Assembly: GCA_030820665.1 (NCBI GenBank)
Contig: GCA_030820665.1_4852.1
Origin: a phage
Length of the DNA stretch: 17,779 nt
Strand: one strand, 5' to 3'
Shown here: in pieces, positions 1,602 through 16,534 of the stretch
How positions within the stretch are numbered: the stretch's first letter is position 1
How the letters are laid out: every line of letters starts with the position of its first letter
Program-made: the position numbers and the translations under genes
The notes under the pieces: generated by a model
Databases searched by the model: none
Told to the model about the DNA's origin: nothing
The model's input: the letters and a program-made list of their open reading frames with translations, nothing else

Positions 1602-1642
1602 TTGACCAATCTACACCGAGCGCATAGTATAATCTACATCAG
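1602..1642 (+). promoter_or_regulatory. Candidate sigma70-type promoter for the terL-portal insert cassette, carrying the CTACATCA element
   Basis: TTGACC is at 1602-1607. TAGTAT at 1625-1630 (17-nt spacer) overlaps TATAAT at 1628-1633, followed directly by CTACATCA at 1634-1641. AATCTACA occurs twice (1608-1615, 1631-1638). The string GCATAGTAT..CTACATCA is shared with the leftward promoter at 6386-6402. Confidence 0.5.
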
Positions 1643-1661
1643 GCTTATCGGAGATATCACT

Positions 1662-1868
1662 ATGCGCAGCTATGCAGGGTTCACACAGGAGGAGAAAGAG
1701 CAGGTTTATTCACTGGCTCGGGCTGGTGTGCCAGATGAGGTGATTTGCCGTCGGTATGACATCGACGAGGATTTCCTGCTGCGCGTTATTGATGATGTCT
1801 TCGTTAACCTGCAAGAGAAGCGCGGATATAAAGGTATCTGCTGCAAGAATGATTTTTTGAGAGGGTGA
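1662..1868 (+). CDS. Small HTH-like protein (hypothetical, 68 aa), first gene of the insert cassette
   Basis: ORF 1602-1868 trimmed to ATG 1662 (GGAGA at 1650-1654). 'FTQEEKEQVYSLARAGVPDEVICRRYDIDEDFLLRVI' has the pattern of a short helix-turn-helix, as in small transposase or sigma-region-4-like HTH domains. Confidence 0.6.
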   Translation: MRSYAGFTQEEKEQVYSLARAGVPDEVICRRYDIDEDFLLRVIDDVFVNLQEKRGYKGICCKNDFLRG

Positions 1869-1872
1869 TGTG

Positions 1873-2067
1873 ATGATTAAGATGAGCAAGATGAGCAACA
1901 GAAGCAAGGTTTGCAGGATTGCTTTATTGCCAATCTTCCTGCCTGTGTGGTTGTTATGGGTTTTATTTTCTGGGGCGAGAAATCTATTTGAGTATCTTGA
2001 ATTTTGTCAGGCAAAGGTTATACGAAAATTCCATGATGTCATTGATAAGTGGTTTCCGCTTGGTTGA
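1873..2067 (+). CDS. Small single-pass membrane protein (hypothetical, 64 aa)
   Basis: ORF 1870-2067. ATG 1873 lies 4 nt after the previous stop, with GAGGGTGA as the SD. It has a hydrophobic helix 'IALLPIFLPVWLLWVLF' after a basic N-terminus. Confidence 0.6.
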   Translation: MIKMSKMSNRSKVCRIALLPIFLPVWLLWVLFSGARNLFEYLEFCQAKVIRKFHDVIDKWFPLG

Positions 2068-2076
2068 GGTGATGTG

Positions 2077-2244
2077 ATGAAAATTGAAGAAACAGTTAAC
2101 TGCATGGCGATTAATGTGTTCACGGATTGCGATACCATTTGCGTGCAGGATTTCACTGGCGATTATGTCAGGATTGACAAACACCAAGCCGCGCAGCTAA
2201 TCGAAGTCCTGCAACGCTGGGTTAATGGTGAGGAAATTGAGTGA
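2077..2244 (+). CDS. Hypothetical protein (55 aa)
   Basis: Not in the ORF track (<60 aa). ATG 2077 is preceded by GAGGTGA at 2066-2072. Translation: MKIEETVNCMAINVFTDCDTICVQDFTGDYVRIDKHQAAQLIEVLQRWVNGEEIE. Its stop TGA 2242-2244 overlaps the next ATG, and it exactly fills the gap between two tracked ORFs. Confidence 0.55.
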   Translation: MKIEETVNCMAINVFTDCDTICVQDFTGDYVRIDKHQAAQLIEVLQRWVNGEEIE

Positions 2245-2429
2245 TGAGTGTTTATTTCATTCATGGTGAAGTGCTTGATGGTGGTGATGTTGTTACCAAG
2301 GTTTGCGCGACATCTACGGCATCAAACGCCAGTGAAGCGTTTGATTGGTTTTTGGGTTGCGAATTGGTTGTAAAGTACGAAATAAAAGGCTACGACGTCA
2401 TCATTGATAAACTGGAAAAGGTGGAGTGA
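2244..2429 (+). CDS. Hypothetical protein (61 aa)
   Basis: ORF 2241-2429. ATG 2244 overlaps the upstream TGA (GTGATG). I recognise no family. Confidence 0.55.
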   Translation: MSVYFIHGEVLDGGDVVTKVCATSTASNASEAFDWFLGCELVVKYEIKGYDVIIDKLEKVE

Positions 2430-2626
2430 TGCATTTCAAATCACTAAATACCATAAGGAACGAGATGGTTGGTGGCAAATATAAAAACCACAGAGACGAA
2501 GTAGTAACCGTTGTTAATGTTGTTGGCGCTGGCGGTGGTTATCAGGTCCATTTTAATTACGGCATGCCATACAATGTGGTTTGCGGACTTGGCAAGTTCA
2601 GGCAGCGATACCCGCATAAGGTTTAG
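2429..2626 (+). CDS. Hypothetical protein (65 aa), last gene of the insert cassette
   Basis: ORF 2426-2626. ATG 2429 overlaps the upstream TGA, with GGTGGAG as the SD. It has a glycine-rich centre 'VVGAGGGYQVHF'. I recognise no family. Confidence 0.55.
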   Translation: MHFKSLNTIRNEMVGGKYKNHRDEVVTVVNVVGAGGGYQVHFNYGMPYNVVCGLGKFRQRYPHKV

Positions 2627-2640
2627 CCATATACCATCCA

Positions 2641-2649
2641 TGCTATAAT
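2641..2649 (+). promoter_or_regulatory. Extended -10 element (TGcTATAAT) upstream of the portal gene
   Basis: A perfect TGnTATAAT lies at 2641-2649. The -35 is weak (TTTAGC at 2622-2627). The element overlaps the 5' arm of the terminator hairpin. Confidence 0.35.
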
Positions 2650-2676
2650 CCCATCCAACGTGATGGGATTTTTTAT
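2647..2676 (+). terminator. Rho-independent terminator closing the insert cassette
   Basis: A 9-bp stem pairs AATCCCATC (2647-2655) with GATGGGATT (2662-2670). The loop is 6 nt, and the 3' arm runs into TTTTTTATT. Confidence 0.8.
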
Positions 2677-2685
2677 TGGTGACAT

Positions 2686-4098
2686 ATGTCAAAAATTGAT
2701 GCACTAAACGCTTATATACGCGACCGCGTAGCGAACAATAACCGGGCGATCCAGCAGCAACGGCTTTGCGCTGGCGGGAAGAATCTGGACCAGAAGCGAG
2801 AGTTCATGTGGAAGGAACTTGGCTACCCGCAGGAAATCACCGCCGAGATGTTCCGCTATGCCTATGAGCGACACCCAGCCGCCGCCGCTGGAATTAACCG
2901 CATTATTAATAAATGTTGGCAGAAATACCCTGAAGTTGTCGAAGATGGCGAGGATGACAAGAACTCAACGACATGGGAGCTGTCCATCAACGACATGATG
3001 AAGCGCGCCTACCCGTTCATCAAGGAGGCTGATAAGCGCAACGCCATCAACCGCTATTCCGCTGTTATCCTGCAAATCCGTGACGGCAAACAGTGGAGTG
3101 AGCCTGTAGACATTACAAAAACCCGCCGCATTAAAGATAAATCCATCGCTCGCTTTATTCCGGTATGGGAAGAGCAGCTACGCGTTAGCGCATGGAATAA
3201 CGACGAAACCAGCGAAGACTACGGAATGCCTGAGATGTACGAATATCAGGAAAGCGCCGTGGAGGACTTCGATAGCGATGGCAAGCCTGAGCGTTCCGTG
3301 CAGATTCACCCTGACCGCATCATCATTCTGGCTGAGGGTAGTTTTGACGGCAGTATGTTCAGTGGCATCCCGATGTTGCGTGCTGGCTACAATAGCCTTA
3401 TCGACATGGCTAAGGTTTCAGGTAGTTCAGCAGAAGGATTCCTGAAGAATGCCAGCCGTCAACTGGCTGTTAACTACACGAAGGACAACGTAACGCCAGC
3501 AAGCCTTGCGCAGTCTATGGGTGTCGATATTGAAGAACTCACTGACATCATGAATGAGAACATCGAAGCGCTAAACTCAGGCATCGACGCAGCTATGTTC
3601 ACAATGGGGGCGGATGCAAAGGTGCTTGCCGTAACGCCAGCCGACCCGAAACCAACATGGGAAGTGGCTGCCAACCAGTTCGCTGCATCAATGGCGCTTC
3701 CGTTCACCGTCATTTTTGGTCAGCAAACCGGACGCCTTGCGAGTGATGAGGACAAGATGCAGGAGGCGATGACAGCCAAGCAGCGCCGCGAAACGTGGGT
3801 TGATTATGTCATCTCAATGTTCGTTGAGCGCATGATTCAGTTCGGCATTGTCGATAAAGCACCGGCAAATGGCTACAAGGTTAAGTGGGATGATCTGCTT
3901 GCCCCATCAGAGCTGGATAAAGCTGAATTGCTGTCCAAGCTCGCCACTGCGAACAAGTCCTTCTTTGATGCTGGTCAATCTGCACTGCTGACCGTCGATG
4001 AAGCTCGCGGCATGGTTTGCATGGAGCCAATTGAACTTGACGAAAGCTATCGCGAAGACACACCGCCGGAAGACGAAAATGAAGATACTCCGGTTTAA
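2686..4098 (+). CDS. Portal protein (DUF1073/HI1409-type family, from memory)
   Basis: 470 aa, sitting between terL and the MuF-like gene. It has an acidic C-terminal tail '[14 protein letters not shown]'. The SD is GGTGA at 2677-2681. The family assignment rests on position, size and general resemblance and needs an HMM check. Confidence 0.8.
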
Positions 4099-5029
4099 CG
4101 CAAGGCTACCCCAACCGCGCATATCGCAGAGCCTGACAGACCCGCTGGGTGCTGCGACTCGCCTGTCGAAGATGGATAAGGTGATAACGCGCAAATACAA
4201 ACAATTCAGGACTCGTGCTCTTGAGTTGTTTCGCACTATTCCGAACGGTCAGGCTAATGCAGAATCAAGCGGTCTGTATTTCTACGATTTCAGCAGTGCA
4301 CGGGCTGCCACTTTCATGGATGAGTTACAGGCGCTGATTGACGAGATTCTTCTTGAAGGTGATGATTTCGGTCACGGCAGGATGTGGGCCAATGTGTTCA
4401 TTGGTGATGCGTATCAGGCCGGAACACAAAAGGCTAACTCAGAACTGTCAAGCCTGTCTCCGGTTTACGCTGAGCAGAGGCCGATTGCCGCGATACTCTA
4501 CAGTGAGCCTTACCTGAATCGGCTCCAACTGGCTTATACGCAAGGTTACTCAGACTGGCGCGGATTGAGTGATTACTCCCGCCAGCAACTGGCATCTGTC
4601 ATTATGGAAGGCATTGCCCGTGGCGCTAATCCTCGCGATGTTGAAGCTGACATTGTTAAACGTGTTGATGTATCTCACAGCTACGCGAAACAGTTGGCGC
4701 AGACTGAAATAACCGGAACGCTACGTCAGGCTAACAGGCGGGAGGTCATTGAGGCGCGCGAAGAGTTAGGCATTGAGACGGTGATGCTGTGGCAATCGGC
4801 GTTGATGCGCACAACCCGCCAGACGCACGCAGCGCGACACGGACGGTTTTATACACCAGAAGAGATTGACACGTTTTATAGCGAGAATGGCAATAAATAT
4901 AATTGTCACTGTGCACAAACACCAGCATTGCTAATGGATGGGAAACCAGTCATTCTTGAATCCTCGCAGGAAAGGCTTGATAAACAGCGTGAAGCATGGC
5001 AATCAGTCAACAAAAAGCCCTCTAAGTGA
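4079..5029 (+). CDS. Minor head / head morphogenesis protein, Phage_Mu_F (SPP1 gp7) family
   Basis: ORF 3998-5029. The likely start is ATG 4079, a 20-nt overlap with the portal gene; ATG 4172 is the alternative. Hallmarks are '[12 protein letters not shown]', '[12 protein letters not shown]' and 'NCHCAQ', as in MuF-domain proteins. There is no extra C-terminal domain. Confidence 0.8.
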
Positions 5030-5041
5030 GGGCTTGGTTTT
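5015..5041. terminator. Bidirectional intrinsic terminator between convergent MuF-like gene and leftward operon
   Basis: AAGCCCTC (5015-5022) pairs with GAGGGCTT (5028-5035) around a 5-nt loop. It is flanked by an A-run upstream and GGTTTT downstream. The stop codon of the MuF-like gene (5027-5029) sits in the hairpin. Confidence 0.8.
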
Positions 5042-5112
5042 GTCTTGTGAGCATACACAGAACAAATATTATTATCGCATAGCACAATATCTCTACGATG
5101 CTGAATATTGTT

Positions 5113-5757
5113 TTAATCATCCAGTTTCACGCCTGGAATTTTTCCTGCTGCAATGGCTTCATAAATTAGCTTGGCCTCGTCCTCGCGCCTGTAATCTTGA
5201 GCTGCCATTTCTAACACCGCGCAGATAGACTCAAGTACAGCCTCATGCTTCTTTTCTGCTTCTGTGCGTAGTGGTTTTAGGCTTTCCGGTACGAAGCAGC
5301 ATGACCGACCAGCACCACCTTCATCCCAATAGCAAACAGCCACATCGTTTCCGTCCGTTGTTGTCTTGTGCGCTACAACTTCCATTTCAGTGCCAGCATC
5401 AGGAATCCAGTCATTGCAGTATCCTAACTTTGGATTAAAGAAGAATTCTACTTTTGCACCAACTGGCGGCAGGCCTTCTCCATTCCATGTCTGCTTTTGC
5501 AATGCTGCTAGCGCGGATTCATACAAGTCGCGAGTTATCATACAATAATCCGTGGCTACGCTGACATAGCGACCGGGTATGGGGATTGCCACGGTGTACT
5601 GAAATGGCACATCAAAACCATCGCTATATCCCTTTGGGAAACAAAAAGCAATTGTGATACTGTCACCATTGAAATCACCAACTCGACACCTCTCAGCACC
5701 ATCAGGCCACCCACCACGCTTAGGTAATTCTTGAACTAACAGGTCGATAAGTTTCAT
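5113..5757 (-). CDS. Hypothetical protein (214 aa), last gene of leftward 4-gene operon
   Basis: The start ATG overlaps the upstream stop (ATGA), with GGAGAA as the SD. It contains 'WNGEGLPPVGAKVEF', followed by 'LKPLRTEAEKK' and a C-terminal 'IYEAIAAGKIPGV'. I associate this pattern with uncharacterised accessory proteins of enterobacterial (pro)phages; no function is known to me. Confidence 0.7.
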   Translation of the reverse strand: MKLIDLLVQELPKRGGWPDGAERCRVGDFNGDSITIAFCFPKGYSDGFDVPFQYTVAIPIPGRYVSVATDYCMITRDLYESALAALQKQTWNGEGLPPVGAKVEFFFNPKLGYCNDWIPDAGTEMEVVAHKTTTDGNDVAVCYWDEGGAGRSCCFVPESLKPLRTEAEKKHEAVLESICAVLEMAAQDYRREDEAKLIYEAIAAGKIPGVKLDD

Positions 5758-6068
5758 TTTGTTTCTCCCAATGCTTTATTAACCGCGGCACGTGCATTAT
5801 CCAGAGCGCGACGCTTGCTTGATGTTGTCCAGCATTTTCCGGAGTGGTCGTCGTAGATTTCCAGAAGTTGCTGGAGTGCTGATAACAGGTCAGGAGATGC
5901 CGCTATTAGCCTTGCGTTATGCCATTGCTCGGTTTTATCACCGTTATATGTTGGAGTGAATGCAACCTCGACACCAATATCCGAGATAACATCTGGCGCG
6001 TTATCATCACCAACAACAACTTCCCATTTTCCATGCGTACCTTTAAATTCTTTCACATCCAACCTCAC
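5754..6068 (-). CDS. Hypothetical protein (104 aa)
   Basis: The GTG start at 6066-6068 overlaps the upstream stop (GTGA). It contains 'NARLIAASPDLLSALQQLLE', a motif common in uncharacterised phage proteins. Confidence 0.65.
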   Translation of the reverse strand: MRLDVKEFKGTHGKWEVVVGDDNAPDVISDIGVEVAFTPTYNGDKTEQWHNARLIAASPDLLSALQQLLEIYDDHSGKCWTTSSKRRALDNARAAVNKALGETK

Positions 6069-6208
6069 TTAATATACTCAACAATCTCAACTTCACGCAT
6101 CTGCACCAGGCCAAATGGTGCAACCACCTTACCGCACGGACGGATTTTGATTTGCTCAAGGTTGAACACTCCGCAGCGTCCGTTTTCTTTGAATTTGACC
6201 ATTACCAT
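6065..6208 (-). CDS. Hypothetical small protein (47 aa)
   Basis: Not in the ORF track. Read by hand on the minus strand: MVMVKFKENGRCGVFNLEQIKIRPCGKVVAPFGLVQMREVEIVEYIK. It starts 2 nt after the upstream stop, and its TGA overlaps the downstream GTG start. Confidence 0.5.
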   Translation of the reverse strand: MVMVKFKENGRCGVFNLEQIKIRPCGKVVAPFGLVQMREVEIVEYIK

Positions 6209-6210
6209 AA

Positions 6211-6369
6211 TTAATACCCGTTTTTCTTGGCTAATTGTTGCGCACGTTTCTTCGTGTACCCACAGGCCATCAGGCGCTTGACCTCGTTGCGGCGCCTTGC
6301 GAAATGGTACTCACGAGAATTAAATGCACATTCGTTGCTAAAGTTAACATTACGTGGATTCATCTTCAT
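6211..6369 (-). CDS. Hypothetical small basic protein (52 aa; 50 aa if it starts at 6363)
   Basis: Not in the ORF track. Translation: MKMNPRNVNFSNECAFNSREYHFARRRNEVKRLMACGYTKKRAQQLAKKNGY. GAGGTG lies immediately upstream, which favours the ATG at 6363. It is the first gene after the divergent promoter. Confidence 0.5.
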   Translation of the reverse strand: MKMNPRNVNFSNECAFNSREYHFARRRNEVKRLMACGYTKKRAQQLAKKNGY

Positions 6370-6384
6370 CACCTCATTCATCAC

Positions 6385-6441
6385 TTGATGTAGATACTAT
6401 GCACCAACAACCAATCTACGTCAACACCATTGTGATAGAAT
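6385..6441. promoter_or_regulatory. Divergent promoter region: interlocked leftward and rightward promoters plus an extended -10 for the lysis operon
   Basis: Leftward promoter: TTGACG (rc of 6419-6424), 17 nt, CATAGT (rc 6396-6401) or TAGTAT (rc 6394-6399), then CTACATCA (rc 6386-6393). Rightward promoter: TTGATG 6385-6390, 19 nt, ACCAAT 6410-6415, then CTACGTCAA 6416-6424. A second rightward element is TGaTAGAAT at 6433-6441. Confidence 0.55.
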
Positions 6442-6467
6442 TAATCATTATTTGAACTGGAGGCAGA

Positions 6468-6746
6468 ATGAAACTATCGCAACGAGGCGTGGAGACGTTT
6501 GGAATTACCGATGCCGTGAATATATCGCCTTACATCACTACCGAGACAACGCAGAATCAGTTCGACGCGCTGGCAAGTCTTGCCACCGACATTGGCATTT
6601 ACGCGTTCCGTAAATCAACGCTTCTGAAGAAGCACAACCTCCGCTGCTTCTCATGTGCTGTTGCGCATTTCATCGCGTGGGGCGAGAAGACTGGCGACAA
6701 AGCAAAACGCAAAGCTGAAAAAGAGGTTTACTGGTATGGCTATTAG
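6468..6746 (+). CDS. Degenerate GH24 (P22 gp19/T4 e-type) lysozyme-like ORF lacking the catalytic N-terminal region
   Basis: 92 aa, with GGAGG at 6459-6463. 'TQNQFDALASLATDIGIYAFRKSTLLKKHNLRCFSCAVAHFIAW' parallels the conserved C-terminal half of P22 gp19-type lysozymes ('NQNQYDALCSLIFNIGKSAFAGSTVLRQLNLKNYQAAADAFLLW', recalled from memory). The N-terminal 'EEGxRLxAY..D..G..T' catalytic segment is absent. The ORF overlaps the next gene by 11 nt. Confidence 0.6.
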   Translation: MKLSQRGVETFGITDAVNISPYITTETTQNQFDALASLATDIGIYAFRKSTLLKKHNLRCFSCAVAHFIAWGEKTGDKAKRKAEKEVYWYGY

Positions 6747-7200
6747 TAAAAACATGAAGGCGTTTCTGGATATGCTGGCGTACAGCGAGGGCACTGATAA
6801 CGGGCGGCAGAAAACCAATAATCATGGTTATGATGTGATTGTTGGCGGCTCACTGTTTACCGACTATTCCGACCACCCGCGCAAGCTGATTAGCCTGCCA
6901 AGGCTGGGCATTAAATCCACCGCCGCCGGTCGCTATCAGGTACTGGCTAAGTTTTATGATGCGTACAAAAAGCAATTGCGTTTACCGGACTTCTCCCCCG
7001 CATCGCAGGACGCCATTGCAATGCAGCTAATCCGTGAATGCAAGGCCACCGCTGATATTGAGGCTGGTCGCATTGCTGATGCCATCCATAAATGCCGCTC
7101 CCGCTGGGCCTCATTGCCGGGCGCTGGGTATGGTCAGCATGAGCAGAAGCTGGATAAGCTGATTCAGGTATACAAAGAGGCTGGCGGAGCTGTGGCATGA
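6736..7200 (+). CDS. R: Endolysin, lambda R-type lytic transglycosylase (GH104)
   Basis: ORF 6655-7200 trimmed to ATG 6736 (AAGAGG at 6721-6726). The 154-aa product is near-collinear with lambda R as I recall it: 'KAFLDMLAYSEGTDNGRQKTNNHGYDVIVGGSLFTDYSDHPRKL', 'AAGRYQ' and 'WASLPGAGYGQHE'. The catalytic Glu context 'SEGT' is retained. Confidence 0.92.
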   Translation: MAISKNMKAFLDMLAYSEGTDNGRQKTNNHGYDVIVGGSLFTDYSDHPRKLISLPRLGIKSTAAGRYQVLAKFYDAYKKQLRLPDFSPASQDAIAMQLIRECKATADIEAGRIADAIHKCRSRWASLPGAGYGQHEQKLDKLIQVYKEAGGAVA

Positions 7201-7436
7201 AAAAGCTAAGCAACTGGCTGCTCGCCGCGTGGATTTCATTCTGCTCGCTGTTACAACTATGGCCTGATGCAATGATGCATGTGTGGGTAATGATGCCGGA
7301 TGACCTGAAAGCAGCGCTACCGCTAATCGTGGTCAAAGGTGTGAGTTACTCAATTATGCTTGTCGGCATCATCGGCAAAATGCACGGCATGAGGAAGGAA
7401 AACCGGAGGCTGCGCAATGATGTCGATTCTCGTTAA
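7197..7436 (+). CDS. Putative holin (class II-like: two TM helices, basic C-terminal tail)
   Basis: 79 aa. The ATG overlaps the endolysin stop (ATGA), with GGAG at 7186-7189. TM1 is 'LSNWLLAAWISFCSLLQLW', TM2 is 'LPLIVVKGVSYSIMLVGIIG', and the tail is 'RKENRRLRNDVDSR'. The call rests on position between endolysin and spanins. I recognise no family. Confidence 0.55.
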   Translation: MKKLSNWLLAAWISFCSLLQLWPDAMMHVWVMMPDDLKAALPLIVVKGVSYSIMLVGIIGKMHGMRKENRRLRNDVDSR

Positions 7437-7908
7437 ATACTGGCGACCGCTGGCAATTATTATAATTGTTGCCGCTGGCGCGTTGTGGGTGGCAAATAAA
7501 GTGTCCGGTTATGGCGAGCAACAATATGCCGCCGGATACGCGAAGGCAGTCGCAGAACAGAAGGCCGCAGACGAACAAGAGGAGCAACGACGCAATGCAG
7601 AACTGCAAAAGATTCAGGCCGACGCACAGCAAAGGATTGATGCTGCGCGCAATGATGCTGTTAATGCTGCCGCTAAGTCTGGCAGGTTGCAGCAACAACT
7701 CACCAGTATCCGCAAGCAGCTCGTCGGATATTCCACCGCTGAGTCCATTGGCAACCCAGCCGCAGAAACCGGAGTTTTGCTTGCAGACGTGCTCCGCAAA
7801 TCTGTCGAAAGAAATCAACAGCTGGCAGATTACGCTGACAGGGCGAGAGAGGCAGGATTGACGTGTGAGGCACAGTATAATTCTCTGCGTAATAAAAAAG
7901 CCCCGTGA
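7417..7908 (+). CDS. Rz: i-spanin (Rz-like)
   Basis: GGAGG at 7404-7408. It has an N-terminal TM 'WRPLAIIIIVAAGALWVA', then a long Ala/Gln/Glu-rich coiled-coil periplasmic domain. It follows the endolysin and holin and contains an embedded lipoprotein ORF in the +1 frame. Confidence 0.85.
   Translation: MMSILVKYWRPLAIIIIVAAGALWVANKVSGYGEQQYAAGYAKAVAEQKAADEQEEQRRNAELQKIQADAQQRIDAARNDAVNAAAKSGRLQQQLTSIRKQLVGYSTAESIGNPAAETGVLLADVLRKSVERNQQLADYADRAREAGLTCEAQYNSLRNKKAP
7640..7861 (+). CDS. Rz1: o-spanin (Rz1-like lipoprotein), fully embedded in Rz in another frame
   Basis: It lies within ORF 7466-7861. Starting at ATG 7640 gives the signal peptide MLRAMMLLMLPLSLAGC with lipobox L-A-G-C. The mature part is Ser/Pro-rich ('CSNNSPVSASSSSDIPPLSPLATQPQKP'). 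ATG 7652 is an alternative start. Confidence 0.8.
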   Translation: MLRAMMLLMLPLSLAGCSNNSPVSASSSSDIPPLSPLATQPQKPEFCLQTCSANLSKEINSWQITLTGRERQD

Positions 7909-7922
7909 TGGGGCTTTGTTTT
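7897..7922. terminator. Bidirectional intrinsic terminator after the lysis cassette
   Basis: AAAGCCCC (7897-7904) pairs with GGGGCTTT (7910-7917) around a 5-nt loop that contains the Rz stop codon. An A-run lies upstream and GTTTT downstream. Convergent genes sit on both sides. Confidence 0.85.
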
Positions 7923-7942
7923 AACCTTCTCCGTAGCCAATG

Positions 7943-8320
7943 TCACGCATAAAGCGCCTCCATCTTGTACCCAAACATAATTGCATTCTGATGCTCAGTG
8001 CTACCAGAAAACACCAGATAGCGTTTACCTCGATTATCCGTAACGATGTAGGCAGCTGGTGAGTTTTCCTTCCTAAATCTGGCTTCGTCATCACTCCCTT
8101 CATACATCCTCCCACTCGCTGGCAGATACAAATCGAATGTTTGAATTTCCGTTCCGCTGCATTCATTGCTACGTTCATTGAACAGGATAGCCAATCTTGG
8201 GTTGCCATTGGAATGCTTTGCAGGGAATGCGATTCTCCAGCCATCGCACATATACTGACTTGGGTAGGATAGCCATGACTTACCGCGCCTACCCTCCGTA
8301 AGAATCGGCTTACTCGCCAT
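7943..8320 (-). CDS. Hypothetical protein (125 aa), last gene of leftward 5-gene operon
   Basis: ORF 7943-8368 trimmed to ATG 8320, where GGAGGA lies 5 nt upstream. It overlaps the upstream gene by 11 nt. I recognise no family. Confidence 0.6.
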   Translation of the reverse strand: MASKPILTEGRRGKSWLSYPSQYMCDGWRIAFPAKHSNGNPRLAILFNERSNECSGTEIQTFDLYLPASGRMYEGSDDEARFRKENSPAAYIVTDNRGKRYLVFSGSTEHQNAIMFGYKMEALYA

Positions 8321-8585
8321 TATGATCCTCCACAATCCGCACCAGTGAGCACTCAAGATTCGGTGCATTGTAATTACCAGCCAGAAACAGCACGCTACCA
8401 GTGCTAATAAGCACCTGCTTCGCGTTCGCCTGCGACAGATTCTGCACGATGAATTGCGCTGTTTCTGTGCCGATTTTCAGCACTGCGCTGCCGTCGCTGT
8501 TCAGTGATACAAGTTGTGCGGAAGTGTCAGTAATGTTGGTGAAGTTCGCGTTTCGCTGCGCGATTGTGATGTCGCAAAAAGACAT
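8310..8585 (-). CDS. Hypothetical protein (91 aa)
   Basis: GGAGAG lies 8 nt upstream, and the start overlaps the upstream stop (TAATG). I recognise no family. Confidence 0.6.
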   Translation of the reverse strand: MSFCDITIAQRNANFTNITDTSAQLVSLNSDGSAVLKIGTETAQFIVQNLSQANAKQVLISTGSVLFLAGNYNAPNLECSLVRIVEDHNGE

Positions 8586-8887
8586 TATTTAATCTCTCCG
8601 TTCAGTTCATTAACAATTAACGTTGCATAGCCAGCAATATCTTTCCAGCTGTCATCATAAGTCGGGTCGCCATTCAGAATGCGCCCAATCTTGTGCTGAA
8701 TCATGTCGAGCGCCTCGCGTTGACTTGGTGTGAGATTGCGCCAGCCATCTACCTTGCGCATCACATCTTTCAACTCCTGCATAATTTCAGCGCCGTCTTT
8801 GAATTTACCGTATCGACTACCGCGTTCGGTGATGAGTCGCTCTGTTGCGTCAGTATGGCGCTTATCGCCCGTGATTTGTGAACTCAT
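8585..8887 (-). CDS. Helical protein resembling the phage DUF6378-type family (function unknown)
   Basis: 100 aa. 'ERGSRYGKFKDGAEIMQEL....LTPSQREALDMIQHKIGRILNGDPTYDDSWKDIAGYATL' follows the pattern ER...YG....nf..ia.......lt...a..m...K..R......h.DSw.DiaGYA. I remember this pattern from a widespread uncharacterised phage family; the family name is from memory. Confidence 0.55.
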   Translation of the reverse strand: MSSQITGDKRHTDATERLITERGSRYGKFKDGAEIMQELKDVMRKVDGWRNLTPSQREALDMIQHKIGRILNGDPTYDDSWKDIAGYATLIVNELNGEIK

Positions 8888-9374
8888 TGTGATGCATTCT
8901 CCTGAATTCTTTTATTTTTGCTTCTGCTTCTCTTATGTCGGAAAAGTAACCAACTGTGAATCTTTTGCCATTTACTCCAACTCTTGCATGCCACTTGTTG
9001 TGCGATGAACTCCAGTTAACCCCCTTGATACCGCTAGTGTTGTTTTTGTTCATTGCTTTGTTGTGGCTATTCTCAAATTTGCTGGCCTCCCTTAAATTGC
9101 ACGCCCTGTTGTCATTGCGAATGCCATTAATGTGGTCAATCATTTCACTTGCTGGCGCGCCATGAATGCATATCCATGCCAATCTGTGAGCAAGAAAAGC
9201 CCTACCGCAAAGAATTATTTGCACATATCCATCTGGCTTTAAGTAGCCAGCCACACTCCCTTTTTCTGCAATCCTATTCCTTGTCTTTAGCCATTTAAAT
9301 TCCCCAGTTAGTGGATTGTAGTAAAGGTAACTCAATATAAACTCCCTACTCGGCTCATCTCTCCTATGCCTCAT
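8862..9374 (-). CDS. HNH homing endonuclease with C-terminal AP2 DNA-binding domain
   Basis: 170 aa. The HNH_3-type core is 'AHRLAWICIHG....IDHINGIRNDNRACNLREA'. The AP2 module is 'SGIKGVNWSSSHNKWHARVGVNGKRFTVGYFSDIREAEAKIKEFRRMHHNEF'. It overlaps the downstream gene by 26 nt and is visibly more A/T-rich than its neighbours. Confidence 0.9.
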   Translation of the reverse strand: MRHRRDEPSREFILSYLYYNPLTGEFKWLKTRNRIAEKGSVAGYLKPDGYVQIILCGRAFLAHRLAWICIHGAPASEMIDHINGIRNDNRACNLREASKFENSHNKAMNKNNTSGIKGVNWSSSHNKWHARVGVNGKRFTVGYFSDIREAEAKIKEFRRMHHNEFTNHGR

Positions 9375-9577
9375 TTCTCATCCTCTTTCATTGTCACCCT
9401 ATTATTCTCGTCAACACTGAAGTTGGCCCGAATCAAATCATACATATCTTCCTTAGGCATATCAGCCAGCGCCACATAGCAACGGGCGAAGTAGCGAACA
9501 TCACGGAGTGTCAGCGGTTGTCGCTTCTCCACAATGCTGGTGATAATGTCCATCGGCTCGCGTCGTGGTCTTGGCAT
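9371..9577 (-). CDS. Hypothetical protein (68 aa), first gene of leftward 5-gene operon
   Basis: AGGAG lies 8 nt upstream of ATG 9577, and the stop overlaps the HNH start (ATGA). I recognise no family. Confidence 0.6.
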   Translation of the reverse strand: MPRPRREPMDIITSIVEKRQPLTLRDVRYFARCYVALADMPKEDMYDLIRANFSVDENNRVTMKEDEK

Positions 9578-9601
9578 ATTTACTACTCCTTCTCGAAAAA
9601 C

Positions 9602-9654
9602 ATCTTGACGTTTCTACATCATTTAGTCAATGCTTGTTGACGTAGATTGTACCA
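9602..9654. promoter_or_regulatory. Divergent regulatory region with paired CTACRTCA / TTGAYGTAG elements
   Basis: Leftward: extended -10 TGgTACAAT (rc 9646-9654), followed by CTACGTCAA (rc 9637-9645). A second leftward candidate is TTGACT (rc 9625-9630), 17 nt, CAAGAT (rc 9602-9607). Rightward: TTGACG at 9605-9610 and 9637-9642 and TTCTACATCA at 9612-9621, but I could find no convincing rightward -10. Confidence 0.45.
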
Positions 9655-9676
9655 CAACGGAAAAGGTGATGTGGAA

Positions 9677-9874
9677 ATGCGATACAAAGAAATAGCAGCG
9701 AGATACCAGAAGGAAGTTCGCGAGGTTATGGAAATCCTTAACGTTCGCGAGGATACCATTAAGTTTGTGGAAACCGCCATGTGTTCACTGGCGCTTGAAG
9801 CGGAGGTTGCGGGTCGTGAAAAGGCTGACGAACTTATATCTGCGGTGGTTTATAGTTCAACCAGTAACGGTTGA
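9677..9874 (+). CDS. Hypothetical protein (65 aa), first gene of rightward accessory operon
   Basis: ORF 9647-9874 trimmed to ATG 9677 (AAGGTG at 9663-9668). It is helical and Glu-rich. I recognise no family. Confidence 0.55.
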   Translation: MRYKEIAARYQKEVREVMEILNVREDTIKFVETAMCSLALEAEVAGREKADELISAVVYSSTSNG

Positions 9875-9934
9875 AGATGAAGGTTATCTGTGCGTTGAGC
9901 ACGTTGTTATCAAATTCTACGGGAGAAATTATAA

Positions 9935-10129
9935 ATGGCGCATGACGAACTGTACGAAGAATCGTTAATCCAGAGGTTGAATGAAGTTGAGCGCACTCGC
10001 GAATGGCTGGAGTGCGAGTTACGAGAAGTGCGCAACCGCCTGCAACGCAAGCGCAGTCAGCAAAGAGATGTCATCGACTGGTCTGGGGGTACACCTAAAT
10101 TTAACAATCTGGGAGAATGGTTGAAATGA
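9935..10129 (+). CDS. Hypothetical coiled-coil protein (64 aa)
   Basis: GGGAGA lies upstream of ATG 9935. 'LNEVERTREWLECELREVRNRLQRKRSQQRD' looks like coiled coil. The stop overlaps the HNH start (ATGA). Confidence 0.55.
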   Translation: MAHDELYEESLIQRLNEVERTREWLECELREVRNRLQRKRSQQRDVIDWSGGTPKFNNLGEWLK

Positions 10130-10656
10130 GCAACATTAGTAAGGAAAGCATTTTAAAGTTCCTCCAGCATGATGAAAATACAGGAAACTTTCTATGGATT
10201 GATAATTTCTCAAGAAAATCAAAGAAAGGGAAGGTGGCTGGAGGTATTACATCGCATGGGTATTGGAGAATTCAACTCCCCATCGGGAGGTTTTACGCAC
10301 ACAGAATGGCGTGGATTGTTTGCAATGGAGATATACCAAACGGATATGAGATTGATCACATAAATGGGAACAAGAAAGATAATCGCATCAGCAACCTAAG
10401 ATTGGTCACAAGAGGTCAAAATGTTATGAATGTAGGCGTGAAAAACAATAATACAAGCGGAGTTAAGGATGTTGTTTGGGACTCTTCGCGAGAAAGGTGG
10501 AGGGTTCAAATTACAGCCAATGGCAAGCATTATTATGGAGGTAGATTCTCGTCAATAACACAAGCAAAAGAGGAGAGGAACAGGCTCATAAAGATGGTTC
10601 ACGGGAAATTTTTGAATACAAAAGGTGAGCAATATGACACTACTAATGAACGATGA
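10126..10656 (+). CDS. HNH homing endonuclease with C-terminal AP2 DNA-binding domain
   Basis: ORF 10117-10656. ATG 10126 is preferred (GGGAGA at 10111-10116, 9-nt spacing). Motifs are 'AHRMAWIVCNG....IDHINGNKKDNRISNLRLV' and 'SGVKDVVWDSSRERWRVQITANGKHYYGGRFSSITQA'. It is a diverged paralogue of 8862-9374(-) and is A/T-rich; a hand count of one 60-nt line gives about 42% GC, against about 57% for a line in the decoration-like gene (14101-14160). Confidence 0.9.
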   Translation: MSNISKESILKFLQHDENTGNFLWIDNFSRKSKKGKVAGGITSHGYWRIQLPIGRFYAHRMAWIVCNGDIPNGYEIDHINGNKKDNRISNLRLVTRGQNVMNVGVKNNNTSGVKDVVWDSSRERWRVQITANGKHYYGGRFSSITQAKEERNRLIKMVHGKFLNTKGEQYDTTNER

Positions 10657-10870
10657 GAAATTACTTGAATGCCCGTTTTGTGGTTGTGATGACGTAAGTG
10701 TTATTGATGACGGCGAATGGTTGCACGTTGAGTGCGGAGATTGTTTTTGCCGCACTGACTCGTATTGCTGCGCATCCACGGCAATGAAGAAATGGAACAC
10801 AAGAGGTGGACACCTCTACACTTCCGACGACTTCAATCAGGCAGCAGAGGAGCGTGATTATGGACTATAA
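10634..10870 (+). CDS. lar: Lar/RalR-family restriction-alleviation protein candidate (zinc-ribbon)
   Basis: ORF 10625-10870. ATG 10634 has AGGTGA 6 nt upstream. 'LLECPFCGCDDVSVIDDGEWLHVECGDCFCRTDSYCCASTAMKKWNTR' follows the Rac RalR/Lar pattern as I recall it (KPCPFCGC..V.V......Y...C.GC..RT.......A...WNKR). It overlaps the HNH 3' end by 23 nt and the next gene by 11 nt. Confidence 0.75.
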   Translation: MTLLMNDEKLLECPFCGCDDVSVIDDGEWLHVECGDCFCRTDSYCCASTAMKKWNTRGGHLYTSDDFNQAAEERDYGL

Positions 10871-11348
10871 ATCACAAATCATGCGCGTGATTATGAATCA
10901 CCCCGGAGCAACGCGCGCATACATTGAGAAGCATTGCGGAGGTAAGCATTCAAGCACCACAACGCATCGCTTACATGAGATGCTTGCTCTTGGATTCATT
11001 CGTCGCGAGAAGTCAGTGATTCGCGGCGGCAAGTGGCAGTATAAATATTTCATCTCTGATGATGCAGCCGGTATTGATGATGCTATTAAGTGCCATTTGC
11101 TTGATAACGCTGGCGCGGAAGTGAAAGAAATCAGTACCACCACTGGCATTGATTATCGCATCGTGAAAAGCCGCATCCGCATTATGTTTCATAACGGTGA
11201 TGTGACGCGAAGCTATGACCACCACAAGAAGCTGTGGCGTTATTCATGGAAGGAGAAGGAAGTCAATGTAAGCAATCTATTTAATTCACTTCTTCGCAGC
11301 GTAAGGGGTCAGCATGGGAAAAGCCAAACGCAAGAAGCAAGAGTATGA
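10860..11348 (+). CDS. Putative DNA-binding protein with two winged-helix-like repeats (162 aa)
   Basis: ORF 10806-11348 trimmed to ATG 10860 (GAGGAG at 10847-10852). Two similar segments are 'IMRVIMNHPGATRAYIEKHCGG....HRLHEMLALGFIRRE' and 'IKCHLLDNAGAEVKEISTTTGIDYRIVKSRIRIMFHNGDVTRS', each followed by a K/W-rich wing-like stretch. The fold assignment is inferred. Confidence 0.5.
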   Translation: MDYKSQIMRVIMNHPGATRAYIEKHCGGKHSSTTTHRLHEMLALGFIRREKSVIRGGKWQYKYFISDDAAGIDDAIKCHLLDNAGAEVKEISTTTGIDYRIVKSRIRIMFHNGDVTRSYDHHKKLWRYSWKEKEVNVSNLFNSLLRSVRGQHGKSQTQEARV

Positions 11349-11827: not shown

Positions 11828-12150
11828 TTATCCAACTAAACGACATTATGAAAGCAGACATCATTCAGCTTGAAGATTATGACGTGCAACTGGCGTTTGA
11901 AATCGAAACAGTTGAGCGTCAGCTGCAGTATGCTGATAAGAAGAATGATCGTGTCTGGCACGAGAAAGCACTTAAGGCGCGCGACCACATGAAACGCACG
12001 CGAGCGCTTATCAAAACGCGACTCGACAAGCTGTATTTTGGTGAAGAACGCATGTTGCATGGCGCGATACTGGCGCAAATCCGCAAGGAAATGCCAATTG
12101 GCAAGTTTATGTCATACGTTCACCGCGCAAAGCAGGAGGCCGGGTTATGA
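11824..12150 (+). CDS. Hypothetical protein (108 aa)
   Basis: ATGA overlap with the upstream gene. The product looks helical. I recognise no family. Confidence 0.6.
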   Translation: MIIQLNDIMKADIIQLEDYDVQLAFEIETVERQLQYADKKNDRVWHEKALKARDHMKRTRALIKTRLDKLYFGEERMLHGAILAQIRKEMPIGKFMSYVHRAKQEAGL

Positions 12151-12335
12151 GCGAACCAAAATTTCCAGAGCTGCCTGTTGAGGTTCAGGTTGCATTGATC
12201 AATGCGGCAAGTGCAATGGCGACAAAGAAGATTGAGGCAATAGGCAGTGATTACAACAGGAGCATAGACTGGTTTCAGAGGGAGTATCAAAAAATCTGCG
12301 ACGCACTCTACAAAGAAAACAGAGGTAGATCATGA
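12147..12335 (+). CDS. Hypothetical protein (62 aa)
   Basis: ATGA overlap with the upstream gene, with GGAGG at 12135-12139. I recognise no family. Confidence 0.55.
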   Translation: MSEPKFPELPVEVQVALINAASAMATKKIEAIGSDYNRSIDWFQREYQKICDALYKENRGRS

Positions 12336-12478
12336 TTTCATTGCTTTGGATATTATCAGCATATGCATTTGCGAGAGTATTTGAGGCCGACACTCTGTAC
12401 CAGATGATTTGCTATGGCGCTCTGTTCTGTCTCTCTGGTGCTGCGCTCGCATTCATTGATGATGTGATTTCAGAATAA
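12332..12478 (+). CDS. Small hydrophobic membrane protein (48 aa)
   Basis: Not in the ORF track. The ATG overlaps the upstream TGA, and AGAGGT lies 5 nt upstream. Translation: MISLLWILSAYAFARVFEADTLYQMICYGALFCLSGAALAFIDDVISE, which has two hydrophobic segments. Confidence 0.5.
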   Translation: MISLLWILSAYAFARVFEADTLYQMICYGALFCLSGAALAFIDDVISE

Positions 12479-12500
12479 CTCCGTATATCTTTTGTTCATC

Positions 12501-12535
12501 ATGGGCTGCTATCATTTAATCATGAGGTAGCCCAT
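12501..12535 (+). promoter_or_regulatory. Stem-loop covering the RBS/start of the small hydrophobic ORF
   Basis: ATGGGCT (12501-12507) pairs perfectly with AGCCCAT (12529-12535). The 21-nt loop contains GAGGT (12524-12528), and the 3' arm contains the first two bases of ATG 12534. No U-tract follows, so it is not a typical terminator. Confidence 0.35.
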
Positions 12536-12656
12536 GAACATAATCCCTATCACTTACTTTCTCACGCTATACGCACTCACCAATTCGCCATTGTTTGCAC
12601 TGGCTACCGCCTCGTGGTGCTATATCTCCCTGTGTTATAATTCGACCACAAACTAA
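12534..12656 (+). CDS. Possible very hydrophobic peptide (40 aa)
   Basis: Not in the ORF track. GAGGT lies 5 nt upstream. Translation: MNIIPITYFLTLYALTNSPLFALATASWCYISLCYNSTTN. It lies in an otherwise non-coding 194-bp spacer, and promoter-like elements overlap its 3' end, so coding status is uncertain. Confidence 0.3.
   Translation: MNIIPITYFLTLYALTNSPLFALATASWCYISLCYNSTTN
12618..12641 (+). promoter_or_regulatory. Tandem extended -10 promoter candidates upstream of the scaffold/capsid genes
   Basis: TGcTATATC at 12618-12626 and TGtTATAAT at 12633-12641. The second lies 32 nt before ATG 12673. The -35 regions are weak. Confidence 0.45.
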
Positions 12657-16501: not shown

Positions 16502-16534
16502 ATATTACCACGAGTGTAACTAGTGTGCTACAAT
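16502..16534. promoter_or_regulatory. Divergent extended -10 promoter candidates
   Basis: Rightward: TTACCA 16505-16510, 18 nt, TGcTACAAT 16526-16534. Leftward, for the HNH gene: TGgTAATAT (rc 16502-16510). Confidence 0.45.

Follow-up and report, generated by a model that had tools for sequence, protein, structure and literature searches.

Mycobacteriophage L5 (cluster A) is a temperate phage in which the binder of the stoperators is the immunity repressor gp71; most stoperators lie inside transcription units, where they block elongation, and one copy overlaps an early promoter. The lambda operators OR and OL, at which Cro acts, are 17-bp pseudo-palindromes that are bound by dimers at two loci, and the p4 sites of phi29 are inverted repeats, the p4 switch working through DNA bending and contact with polymerase alpha. 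The MotA box of T4 replaces the -35 hexamer at approximately -30 and is activating. T1-like phages carry 21-nt intergenic direct repeats (aaATAGCACnnnTTGnTAAAA in the Drexlerviridae phage TLS) located ∼76 nt upstream of start codons (PMC11447400, where L5 is also cited). In the present work we analysed a stretch of phage DNA of 17,779 nucleotides (contig GCA_030820665.1_4852.1; hereafter the window) for a recurrent 12-mer, AATCTACRTCAA. An earlier description made from the letters alone (the sequence-only reading) had assigned this 12-mer to the promoter regions of accessory and lysis genes, and had taken it for either an initial-transcribed or discriminator signature or the operator of a phage regulator.

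All occurrences reported by the sequence-only reading were recovered at their positions in the window:

1631-1642, AATCTACATCAG
1608-1615, AATCTACA
6385-6396, as reverse complement, TATCTACATCAA
6413-6424, AATCTACGTCAA
9612-9621, TTCTACATCA
9637-9648, as reverse complement, AATCTACGTCAA

With at most one mismatch the window contains four matches to AATCTACRTCAA compared with 0.14 expected, none of 200 shuffles reached four, and all four matches are intergenic; at up to two mismatches the excess was weak to marginal (8 versus 3.0 expected). By sequence identity the window is from a Skatevirus-like siphophage. The closest complete genome is that of Salmonella phage vB_SenS_ST1UNAM (L001; 96% identity across 91% of the window), followed at ∼90% identity by the Skatevirus phages VSt472 (L002), Skate (L005), Sf11, C1, seszw and BASEL Bas77-81, and more distantly, at 75–81%, by Klebsiella phages (BUCT541, VLCpiS13f) and Roufvirus pIS4-A. 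These relatives are siphophages of ∼46–48 kb; isolates of the Skatevirus/Roufvirus group are called lytic in the titles and abstracts of phage papers, and the annotations of the relatives that we looked at contain no integrase or immunity repressor.

In ST1UNAM an unbiased count of 8-mers gave TCTACGTC, CAATCTAC and AATCTACA as the words most enriched in intergenic DNA, with seven intergenic occurrences and one coding occurrence in a genome that is 8.65% intergenic. Read on its opposite strand, the 12-mer gives an asymmetric element of 11 bp, TGAYGTAGATT, and this strand is the informative one. At up to one mismatch, ST1UNAM and pIS4-A each have 16 matches to TGAYGTAGATT, where 1.52 and 1.37, respectively, are expected; 13 of the 16 copies in ST1UNAM are intergenic, as are all 15 in BUCT541, where intergenic DNA makes up 6.1% of the genome. 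Of the seven divergent intergenic regions in ST1UNAM, six contain it, mostly as two copies each, and some internal operon junctions contain it too; it is present in phages of Salmonella, E. coli, Shigella and Klebsiella and in one phage recorded on Aeromonas. TGAYGTAGATT is a family-wide, conserved, promoter-embedded cis-element of Skatevirus and Roufvirus phages, and the view of the 12-mer as a real regulatory signature was supported in the window and extended to the family. No description of it turned up in the literature under Skatevirus, Roufvirus, Drexlerviridae promoters or the motif strings themselves, for which the matches were primers in unrelated papers. A scan of IMG/VR viral contigs for distant phages with paired copies (GTAGATT-N5-25-TGAYGTAGATT) returned at least 120 mostly unrelated contigs, approximately the chance level, and was dropped.

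The first part of the element, (T)TGAYG, resembles a -35 hexamer and the part fused to it, TAGATT, a -10 hexamer; copies were seen in either role. It serves as the -10 in TTGACA-N17-TAGATT at ST1UNAM 24964 and 23235 (the latter perfect and leftward) and in TTGACA-N18-TAGATT at BUCT541 21810, and as the -35 in TTGACG-N17-TATAGT at ST1UNAM 20078 and TTGACG-N17-CATAGT at window 6424->6396. Two copies placed 17 bp apart provide both hexamers at once (TTGACG-N17-TAGATT) at ST1UNAM 44206/44223, BUCT541 43775/43792 and VLCpiS13f 33106/33123; spacing between neighbouring copies is otherwise irregular (10, 17, 24, 29 or 31 bp). A -35 partner matching at least five of six bases accompanies 3 of 16 and 3 of 15 copies, compared with 1.6–1.9% of random positions, and a -10 partner matching at least four of six accompanies 19–33% of copies over a background of ∼6%. 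A partner hexamer at 17 ± 1 bp was found for about half of the copies. The end of the motif lies 21–58 nt upstream of a start codon for nearly all copies, in clusters at 21–39, 43–49 and 57–58 nt, a distance which fits a short leader ahead of a co-oriented gene. The genes behind these promoters are small accessory genes and genes for anti-restriction, ParB and methylase proteins, superinfection immunity, exonuclease, recombinase, SSB, helicase and primase; motif promoters are those of the non-structural genes, presumably early and middle, and nearly all promoters of this kind in Skatevirus/Roufvirus phages carry the element on their core; labels such as ‘early’ and ‘late’ are taken from gene content alone.

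Much of this could be expected if the element were simply the preferred -35 (TTGACG) and -10 (TAGATT) of strong, duplicated promoters of the host polymerase, with no extra factor. This explanation, which is the main rival to the one we prefer, accounts for partner hexamers at 17–18 bp that include perfect TTGACA, for start-codon distances that suit short leaders, and for the base at the Y position, which is preferentially C in -35-type copies (giving TTGACG) and T or GG in -10-type copies; the viability of phages that lack the winged-helix protein discussed below also agrees with it. We nevertheless consider it rather unlikely that sigma-70 alone explains the element, because the pattern of conservation is wrong for a -10 hexamer. 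In the sigma-70 hexamer T-12, A-11 and T-7 are the most conserved bases, positions -10 to -8 are the weakest, and nothing is required between -17 and -13. The 33 intergenic copies, collected with a tolerance of two mismatches wherever they fell, showed the opposite profile: T-17, G-13 and G-10 were present in 33 of 33, A-11 and A-9 in 32, and T-8 (26 of 33) and T-7 (25 of 33) were the least conserved positions of the motif. Moreover, the whole 11-mer persists at places where six of its bases would be enough for sigma-70: -10-type copies with a perfect -35 of their own still begin with TGAYG, and -35-type copies are still followed by TAGATT, which there falls in spacer DNA without base contacts to sigma-70. 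Several proximal copies have TAGAAA or TAGATA at their end, either of which makes a poor -10. Copies also occur inverted, within spacers and at +1.

Because the motif lies over the -35, the spacer, the -10 or the +1 of promoters and in either orientation, it appears to behave as an operator. Our preferred reading, in which we see an even chance of being right from the sequence evidence, is that TGAYGTAGATT would be the operator of a sequence-specific protein that turns down the promoters of non-structural genes; of the proposals made earlier for the 12-mer, the operator of a phage regulator is the one that best fits the data. The protein would probably be phage-encoded and bind as a monomer. 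It would compete with RNA polymerase at motif promoters and lower early transcription as infection proceeds, in the manner of Cro, and this turn-down would leave the polymerase to late promoters of the extended -10 type. Applied to the window, this reading would put four promoters under the control of the copies: a rightward one, that of gene 1662; a leftward one, that of the 6363/6384 gene; and the two divergent promoters serving 9577 and 9677.

Several other identities were considered for the element and rejected on its sequence alone. A palindromic site for a dimer would have arms of only 4 bp (TTGA...TCAA), and these in a minority of copies; an element acting at the RNA level does not agree with most copies being upstream of the inferred starts; replication iterons do not agree with copies that are dispersed and promoter-locked; a methylase target was dropped since only half of the copies contain ACGT; and the key positions do not match the -10 elements of sigma-S, sigma-E or sigma-32.

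The other proposal of the sequence-only reading, in which the AATCTACRTCAA strand is a discriminator or initial-transcribed signature downstream of the -10 hexamers of accessory and lysis genes, draws on a subset of copies in which a credible -10 overlaps the AAT end. These are TAGTAT/TATAAT at window 1625-1633, TGgTACAAT at 9654->9646, which is conserved in all clades, the BUCT541 lysis promoter, where TGaTAAAAT is followed by AATCTGCATCA, and ST1UNAM 25004 and 31926. The -10-like hexamers beside the element had been described as abutting it; they are there, but they overlap its first 3 nt (AAT/TAT), and one of the hexamers, ACCAAT at 6410, is not a plausible -10 because it has no A at position 2 and relatives have CTCAAT in this place. 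Across 66 copies the would-be -11 base is T in ∼60% and A in ∼17%, and hence a -10 at the AAT end is not a general feature. Furthermore, copy 6413 is upstream, not downstream, of the -10 of the lysis promoter, and in four of the seven co-directional intergenic regions TGAYGTAGATT points with transcription, i.e. opposite to the direction that a discriminator on the AATCTACRTCAA strand demands; in the remaining three it points against. Agreement with transcription was seen at ST1UNAM 37603, BUCT541 8710 and 3030, and VLCpiS13f 33106/33123 and 44649/44659, and opposition at ST1UNAM 1471 (where the partner gene is lost), 23235 and 31932; divergent intergenic regions carry no information on orientation. 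Since most copies lie 21–58 nt upstream of start codons, they are placed at the -35 or -10 and upstream of the inferred transcription start. The discriminator proposal was not supported, and we regard it as the least probable of the explanations considered here.

The copies cluster in three regions of the window, the first of which precedes gene 1662:

1602-1630, plus strand, sigma-70-like promoter of gene 1662, TTGACC-N17-TAGTAT, matching the consensus at 9 of 12 positions
1608-1618, minus strand, degenerate motif copy CGGTGTAGATT with two mismatches, directly 3′ of the -35 TTGACC and invariant in the alignment of the Skate clade
1631-1641, minus strand, motif copy TGATGTAGATT with no mismatch, directly 3′ of the -10 of the rightward gene-1662 promoter and facing leftward

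Both copies overlap this promoter, one at the start of the spacer and the other at +1, so that the sequence reads TTGACC-AATCTACA...TAGTAT-AATCTACATCA, with copies just after the -35 and just after the -10 of a promoter of opposite sense. The ST1UNAM primase promoter, TTGATG-N17-TATACT, has the same layout and also the opposite sense (TTGATG-TTTCTACGTCA...TATACT-c-AATCTACACCA). Region 1 is invariant within the Skate clade, and copy 1631-1641 is unchanged in ST1UNAM, VSt472 and Skate. The stretch from the terminase gene to gene 1662 contains a 260-bp indel, at window ∼1578-1580 compared with VSt472 2470-2730 and Skate 1977-2237, with GATAAA-type short repeats flanking the junction. The segment present in VSt472 and Skate carries a terminator, a leftward gene of 50 aa and two further motif copies, and it is absent from the window and from ST1UNAM; the leftward-facing copies at 1608 and 1631 are therefore without a partner gene because this gene was lost with the segment.

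Region 2 lies between a small leftward gene and the lysis cassette:

6386-6396, plus strand, motif copy TGATGTAGATA with one mismatch, which reads TATCTACATCA on the minus strand at the -10/+1 of the leftward promoter
6413-6424, minus strand, motif copy TTGACGTAGATT with no mismatch, whose TTGACG provides the -35 hexamer for the leftward accessory-gene promoter
6396-6424, minus strand, leftward promoter TTGACG-N17-CATAGT (or N19-TAGTAT) of the small gene with ATG 6363 or GTG 6384
6433-6441, plus strand, extended -10 of the lysis cassette, TGaTAGAAT, of the late and not the motif class, conserved across clades

The block CAATCTACGTCAA is invariant here in an alignment of seven phages, and the distance from the end of the motif to ATG 6363 is 49 nt. 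The proximal copy has opposite orientations in different clades at almost the same site, being TATCTACATCA on the minus strand of the window and TGATGTAGATA in BUCT541. In the reduced mutant seszw_290S (L128) the two region-2 copies are brought together (TGATGTAGATActatACGTCAAcacc, at 34245-34275), with ∼17 bp fewer than in the window and Skate. Over the lysis promoter, GATAGAATTAATCATTATT at 6434-6452 matches 14 of 19 positions of the E. coli Fur-box consensus, GATAATGATAATCATTATC; this stretch is AT-rich, and the match may be due to chance.

The region-2 copies serve or overlap the divergent leftward accessory promoter, and the lysis cassette groups with the structural genes. The sequence-only reading was thus right that two promoter classes exist and misassigned the lysis genes, whose own promoter is of the extended -10 type. 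In ST1UNAM an extended -10, TGnTAnAAT, precedes ten plus-strand operons, nearly all of them structural, lysis or packaging operons: portal, lysis, scaffold/protease, the 15988 gene, head-tail, major tail, tail, the 29439 tail gene, tailspike and packaging, two of the ten being without an assigned function. This (TG)TGnTAnAAT class shows no clear -35. In the window, the class includes the promoters of portal, lysis, scaffold and gene 16565 as well as the leftward one at 9654, and as the earlier description had it, the sites at 2641, 12633 and 16526 are free of the element:

2641-2649, plus strand, extended -10 TGcTATAAT before the portal gene, no motif
12633-12641, plus strand, extended -10 TGtTATAAT before the scaffold/protease gene, no motif
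16526-16534, plus strand, extended -10 TGcTACAAT before gene 16565, no motif
16502-16510, minus strand, leftward extended -10

Extended -10 promoters have TG at -15/-14, whereas TGAYGTAGATT has it at -17/-16, and the two classes, motif promoters for non-structural genes and extended -10 promoters for structural and lysis genes, are distinct. Promoter and terminator share sequence ahead of the portal gene (window 2641-2677), where the extended -10 runs into a terminator-like hairpin (AATCCCATCCAACGTGATGGGATT and then a T-run, 2647-2670) with its end 9 nt short of the portal start region. A gap of 259 bp (12336-12594) separates the open reading frame at 12147-12335 from that of the scaffold gene (from 12595), with a leftward TGATAATAT at 12350.

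Copy 6413 covers the leftward -35 and, with respect to the rightward lysis promoter, spans approximately -36 to -25; its 12-mer ends 11 nt upstream of the lysis -10 hexamer, a geometry shared by ST1UNAM 20098. At both promoters a copy so placed may have an added positive role. If generalized, the motif would be a positive specificity element at which a phage factor (MotA/AsiA-like, sigma-like or polymerase-binding) guides the host polymerase, and might activate the lysis and ST1UNAM 20098 extended -10 promoters. A motif that is asymmetric, directional and promoter-locked, with this spacing to two extended -10 hexamers, would suit such a factor. Copies over the -10, which must melt, cannot be activator sites, and many motif promoters already have a near-consensus -35 and -10; no match to the sigma, MotA or AsiA families was found by Pfam among the ten window proteins scanned, and deletion of the winged-helix gene is tolerated even though motif promoters drive replication genes. 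We therefore hold a general activating element to be quite improbable. In a dual-register module, the 11-mer, a -35 mimic joined to a -10 mimic, would have two readers, sigma-70 and a small phage protein in competition with it at ∼10 early and middle promoters, the same protein aiding -35-less late promoters such as 6433 from -36 to -25. We think this version unlikely; if true, it would amount to a genome-wide early-to-late switch run by one protein in a virulent siphophage without its own polymerase or sigma factor.

In region 3, the operator reading concerns a divergent pair of promoters:

9598-9660, region-3 core, two inverted copies 15 bp apart around conserved TTAGTCAATRCTT
9611-9621, minus strand, motif copy TGATGTAGAAA with two mismatches, 33 nt upstream of the leftward ATG 9577
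9638-9648, plus strand, motif copy TGACGTAGATT with no mismatch, 28 nt upstream of ATG 9677
9646-9654, minus strand, leftward extended -10 TGgTACAAT, whose AAT overlaps the TAGATT of copy 9638; TGnTACAAT is found in all clades

The 63-bp core has a mean identity of 82% across clades whose proteins share only 35–60%, and it was found in 141 phage records, always in unannotated DNA. The counterpart of copy 9611-9621 is TGATGTAGATT in Skate and TGACGTAGATT in the Klebsiella clade. The rightward operon with the Lar-like and winged-helix genes has the TAGATT of copy 9638 at its -10, and autoregulation of the winged-helix gene from this copy would be possible. Between the 9935 gene and the Lar-like gene, the window has a homing-endonuclease gene of the HNH_3 (and AP2-like) type at 10117-10656, which is absent there in ST1UNAM; HNH genes occur elsewhere in relatives, e.g. 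VSt472 9783-10271.

Two further features adjoin motif copies outside the window. The leftward 23235 promoter of ST1UNAM fires into an unannotated stretch of 818 bp (22497-23314) in which a tRNA search found none; the corresponding region of Skate, BUCT541, VLCpiS13f and pIS4-A does contain tRNA genes. In VSt472 (∼40560-40610), Skate (∼41235-41290) and the genome L007 (∼41530-41590), ATGAAACAAT(C/T)AATCGTTAC stands twice as a tandem direct repeat in the DNA that separates a motif copy from the HNH/helicase operon, and may be a second regulatory or origin-like element.

The sequence-only reading had named two window proteins as possible regulators:

10860-11348, plus strand, tandem winged-helix protein (phrog_1687, ‘MarR family’), candidate regulator
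1662-1868, plus strand, 68-aa three-helix protein, weak candidate regulator, first gene after the region-1 copies

The double winged-helix fold proposed for the first was confirmed structurally, and this protein is the only candidate in the window whose fold is clearly of a DNA-binding type. Its AlphaFold2 model has two consecutive winged-helix units at a predicted local distance difference test score (pLDDT) of 80, and Foldseek related the model to tandem winged-helix proteins and MarR-like chains at E values of 1e-4 to 5e-3; the match to Pfam MarR_2 was 19.2 bits, under the curated cut-off of 27. The family has only eight representatives, all from this phage group, so that co-variation of motif and protein through distant homologs had no contrast to compare and was abandoned. 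Between clades the protein is ∼35% identical, with its second recognition helix conserved (Y99, K103, R105, R107). The helix-turn-helix (HTH) assignment of the second protein fared less well: it is conserved in both clades, belongs to no Pfam family, and the resemblance of its three-helix model to LuxR/NarL-type HTH proteins is non-significant (best E 0.2), and its conserved third helix is acidic (DEDFLLRV), an unusual property in a helix that reads bases. Conservation was also seen for gene 9577, the first leftward gene of region 3, and Protein Data Bank sequence searches with the 1662 and 9577 proteins gave nothing significant.

A genome-reduction study of seszw (PMC9825161) bears on the winged-helix candidate. 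Gene 7 of seszw is its 91%-identical ortholog (1665-2153 in wild-type Seszw_1, L129), and in the viable genome-reduced seszw_290S the wild-type genes 4-7 are gone. The mutant retains orthologs of window genes 1662, 9577, 11314 and 11824, and a ParB-like protein is still annotated. The winged-helix protein thus cannot be an essential activator of motif promoters; it could be a dispensable repressor.

Several observations have to be set against the operator reading. The viable seszw_290S keeps 18 motif matches while lacking the winged-helix gene, and the first recognition helix of this protein has diverged between clades that share the same motif. Several copies form good sigma-70 promoters alone, so that part of the conservation is explained without an extra factor, about half of the copies are without a convincing partner hexamer, and the sequence family could come partly from promoter duplication. 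On sequence evidence the regulator is still a candidate, and the timing of early and late transcription is read from gene content. It is also conceivable that the phages have co-opted the binding site of a conserved enterobacterial DNA-binding protein, since the same motif is found in phages of Salmonella, E. coli, Shigella and Klebsiella and the phage binder is at the candidate stage. The occurrence of the motif in a phage recorded on Aeromonas argues against a host protein, and we know of no match to the consensus of CRP, FNR, Fur, IHF, LexA, NarL, MetJ, EvgA or DnaA; hence we judge this very unlikely.

Skatevirus and Roufvirus phages are widely isolated as candidates for biocontrol and therapy against Salmonella, E. 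coli and Klebsiella, and we found no account of gene-expression scheduling for these genera in the literature searched. Together with the TGnTAnAAT class, the motif gives an almost complete and testable promoter map of their genomes. It marks the borders of hypervariable cassettes of accessory genes, provides a short DNA bait for finding the regulator, and flags sequences to be kept in genome reduction, which could be reused as infection-timed promoters.

Compared with the systems described above, the motif is nearest to the stoperators of L5 and to the unexplained intergenic repeats of T1 and TLS, i.e. to dispersed operators or promoter signatures of phages. With the former it shares an asymmetric site of ∼11–13 bp containing a -35-like hexamer, present in many copies, over-represented and mainly in short intergenic regions. 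The orientation of stoperators is tied to transcription, as is that of the motif in four co-directional regions and not in three. Unlike L5, phages of the Skatevirus group are described as lytic, the copies are on the core promoter (-35, -10 and +1), and the binder is only a candidate. The TLS repeats are likewise genome-wide and intergenic and belong to small virulent siphophages of enterobacteria; they are oriented with transcription, and differ in sequence, in family and in distance to the start codon. The T4 MotA box resembles the motif as an asymmetric phage-specific element in fixed register with a sigma-70 -10, but the motif is also placed at -17 to -7 and at +1, and the promoters that bear it include some with good -35 hexamers. 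The likeness to phi29 p4 is one of logic: p4 sites lie between divergent early and late promoters, so that one binding event could repress one and favour the other, and copy 6413, over the leftward -35 and upstream of the lysis promoter, might act in this way. Finally, the proposed logic is that of lambda Cro, an early product that binds operators over early promoters, including its own, and lowers early transcription; in place of dimer-bound pseudo-palindromes at two loci, these phages have an asymmetric 11-mer at ∼10 promoter regions and in either orientation.

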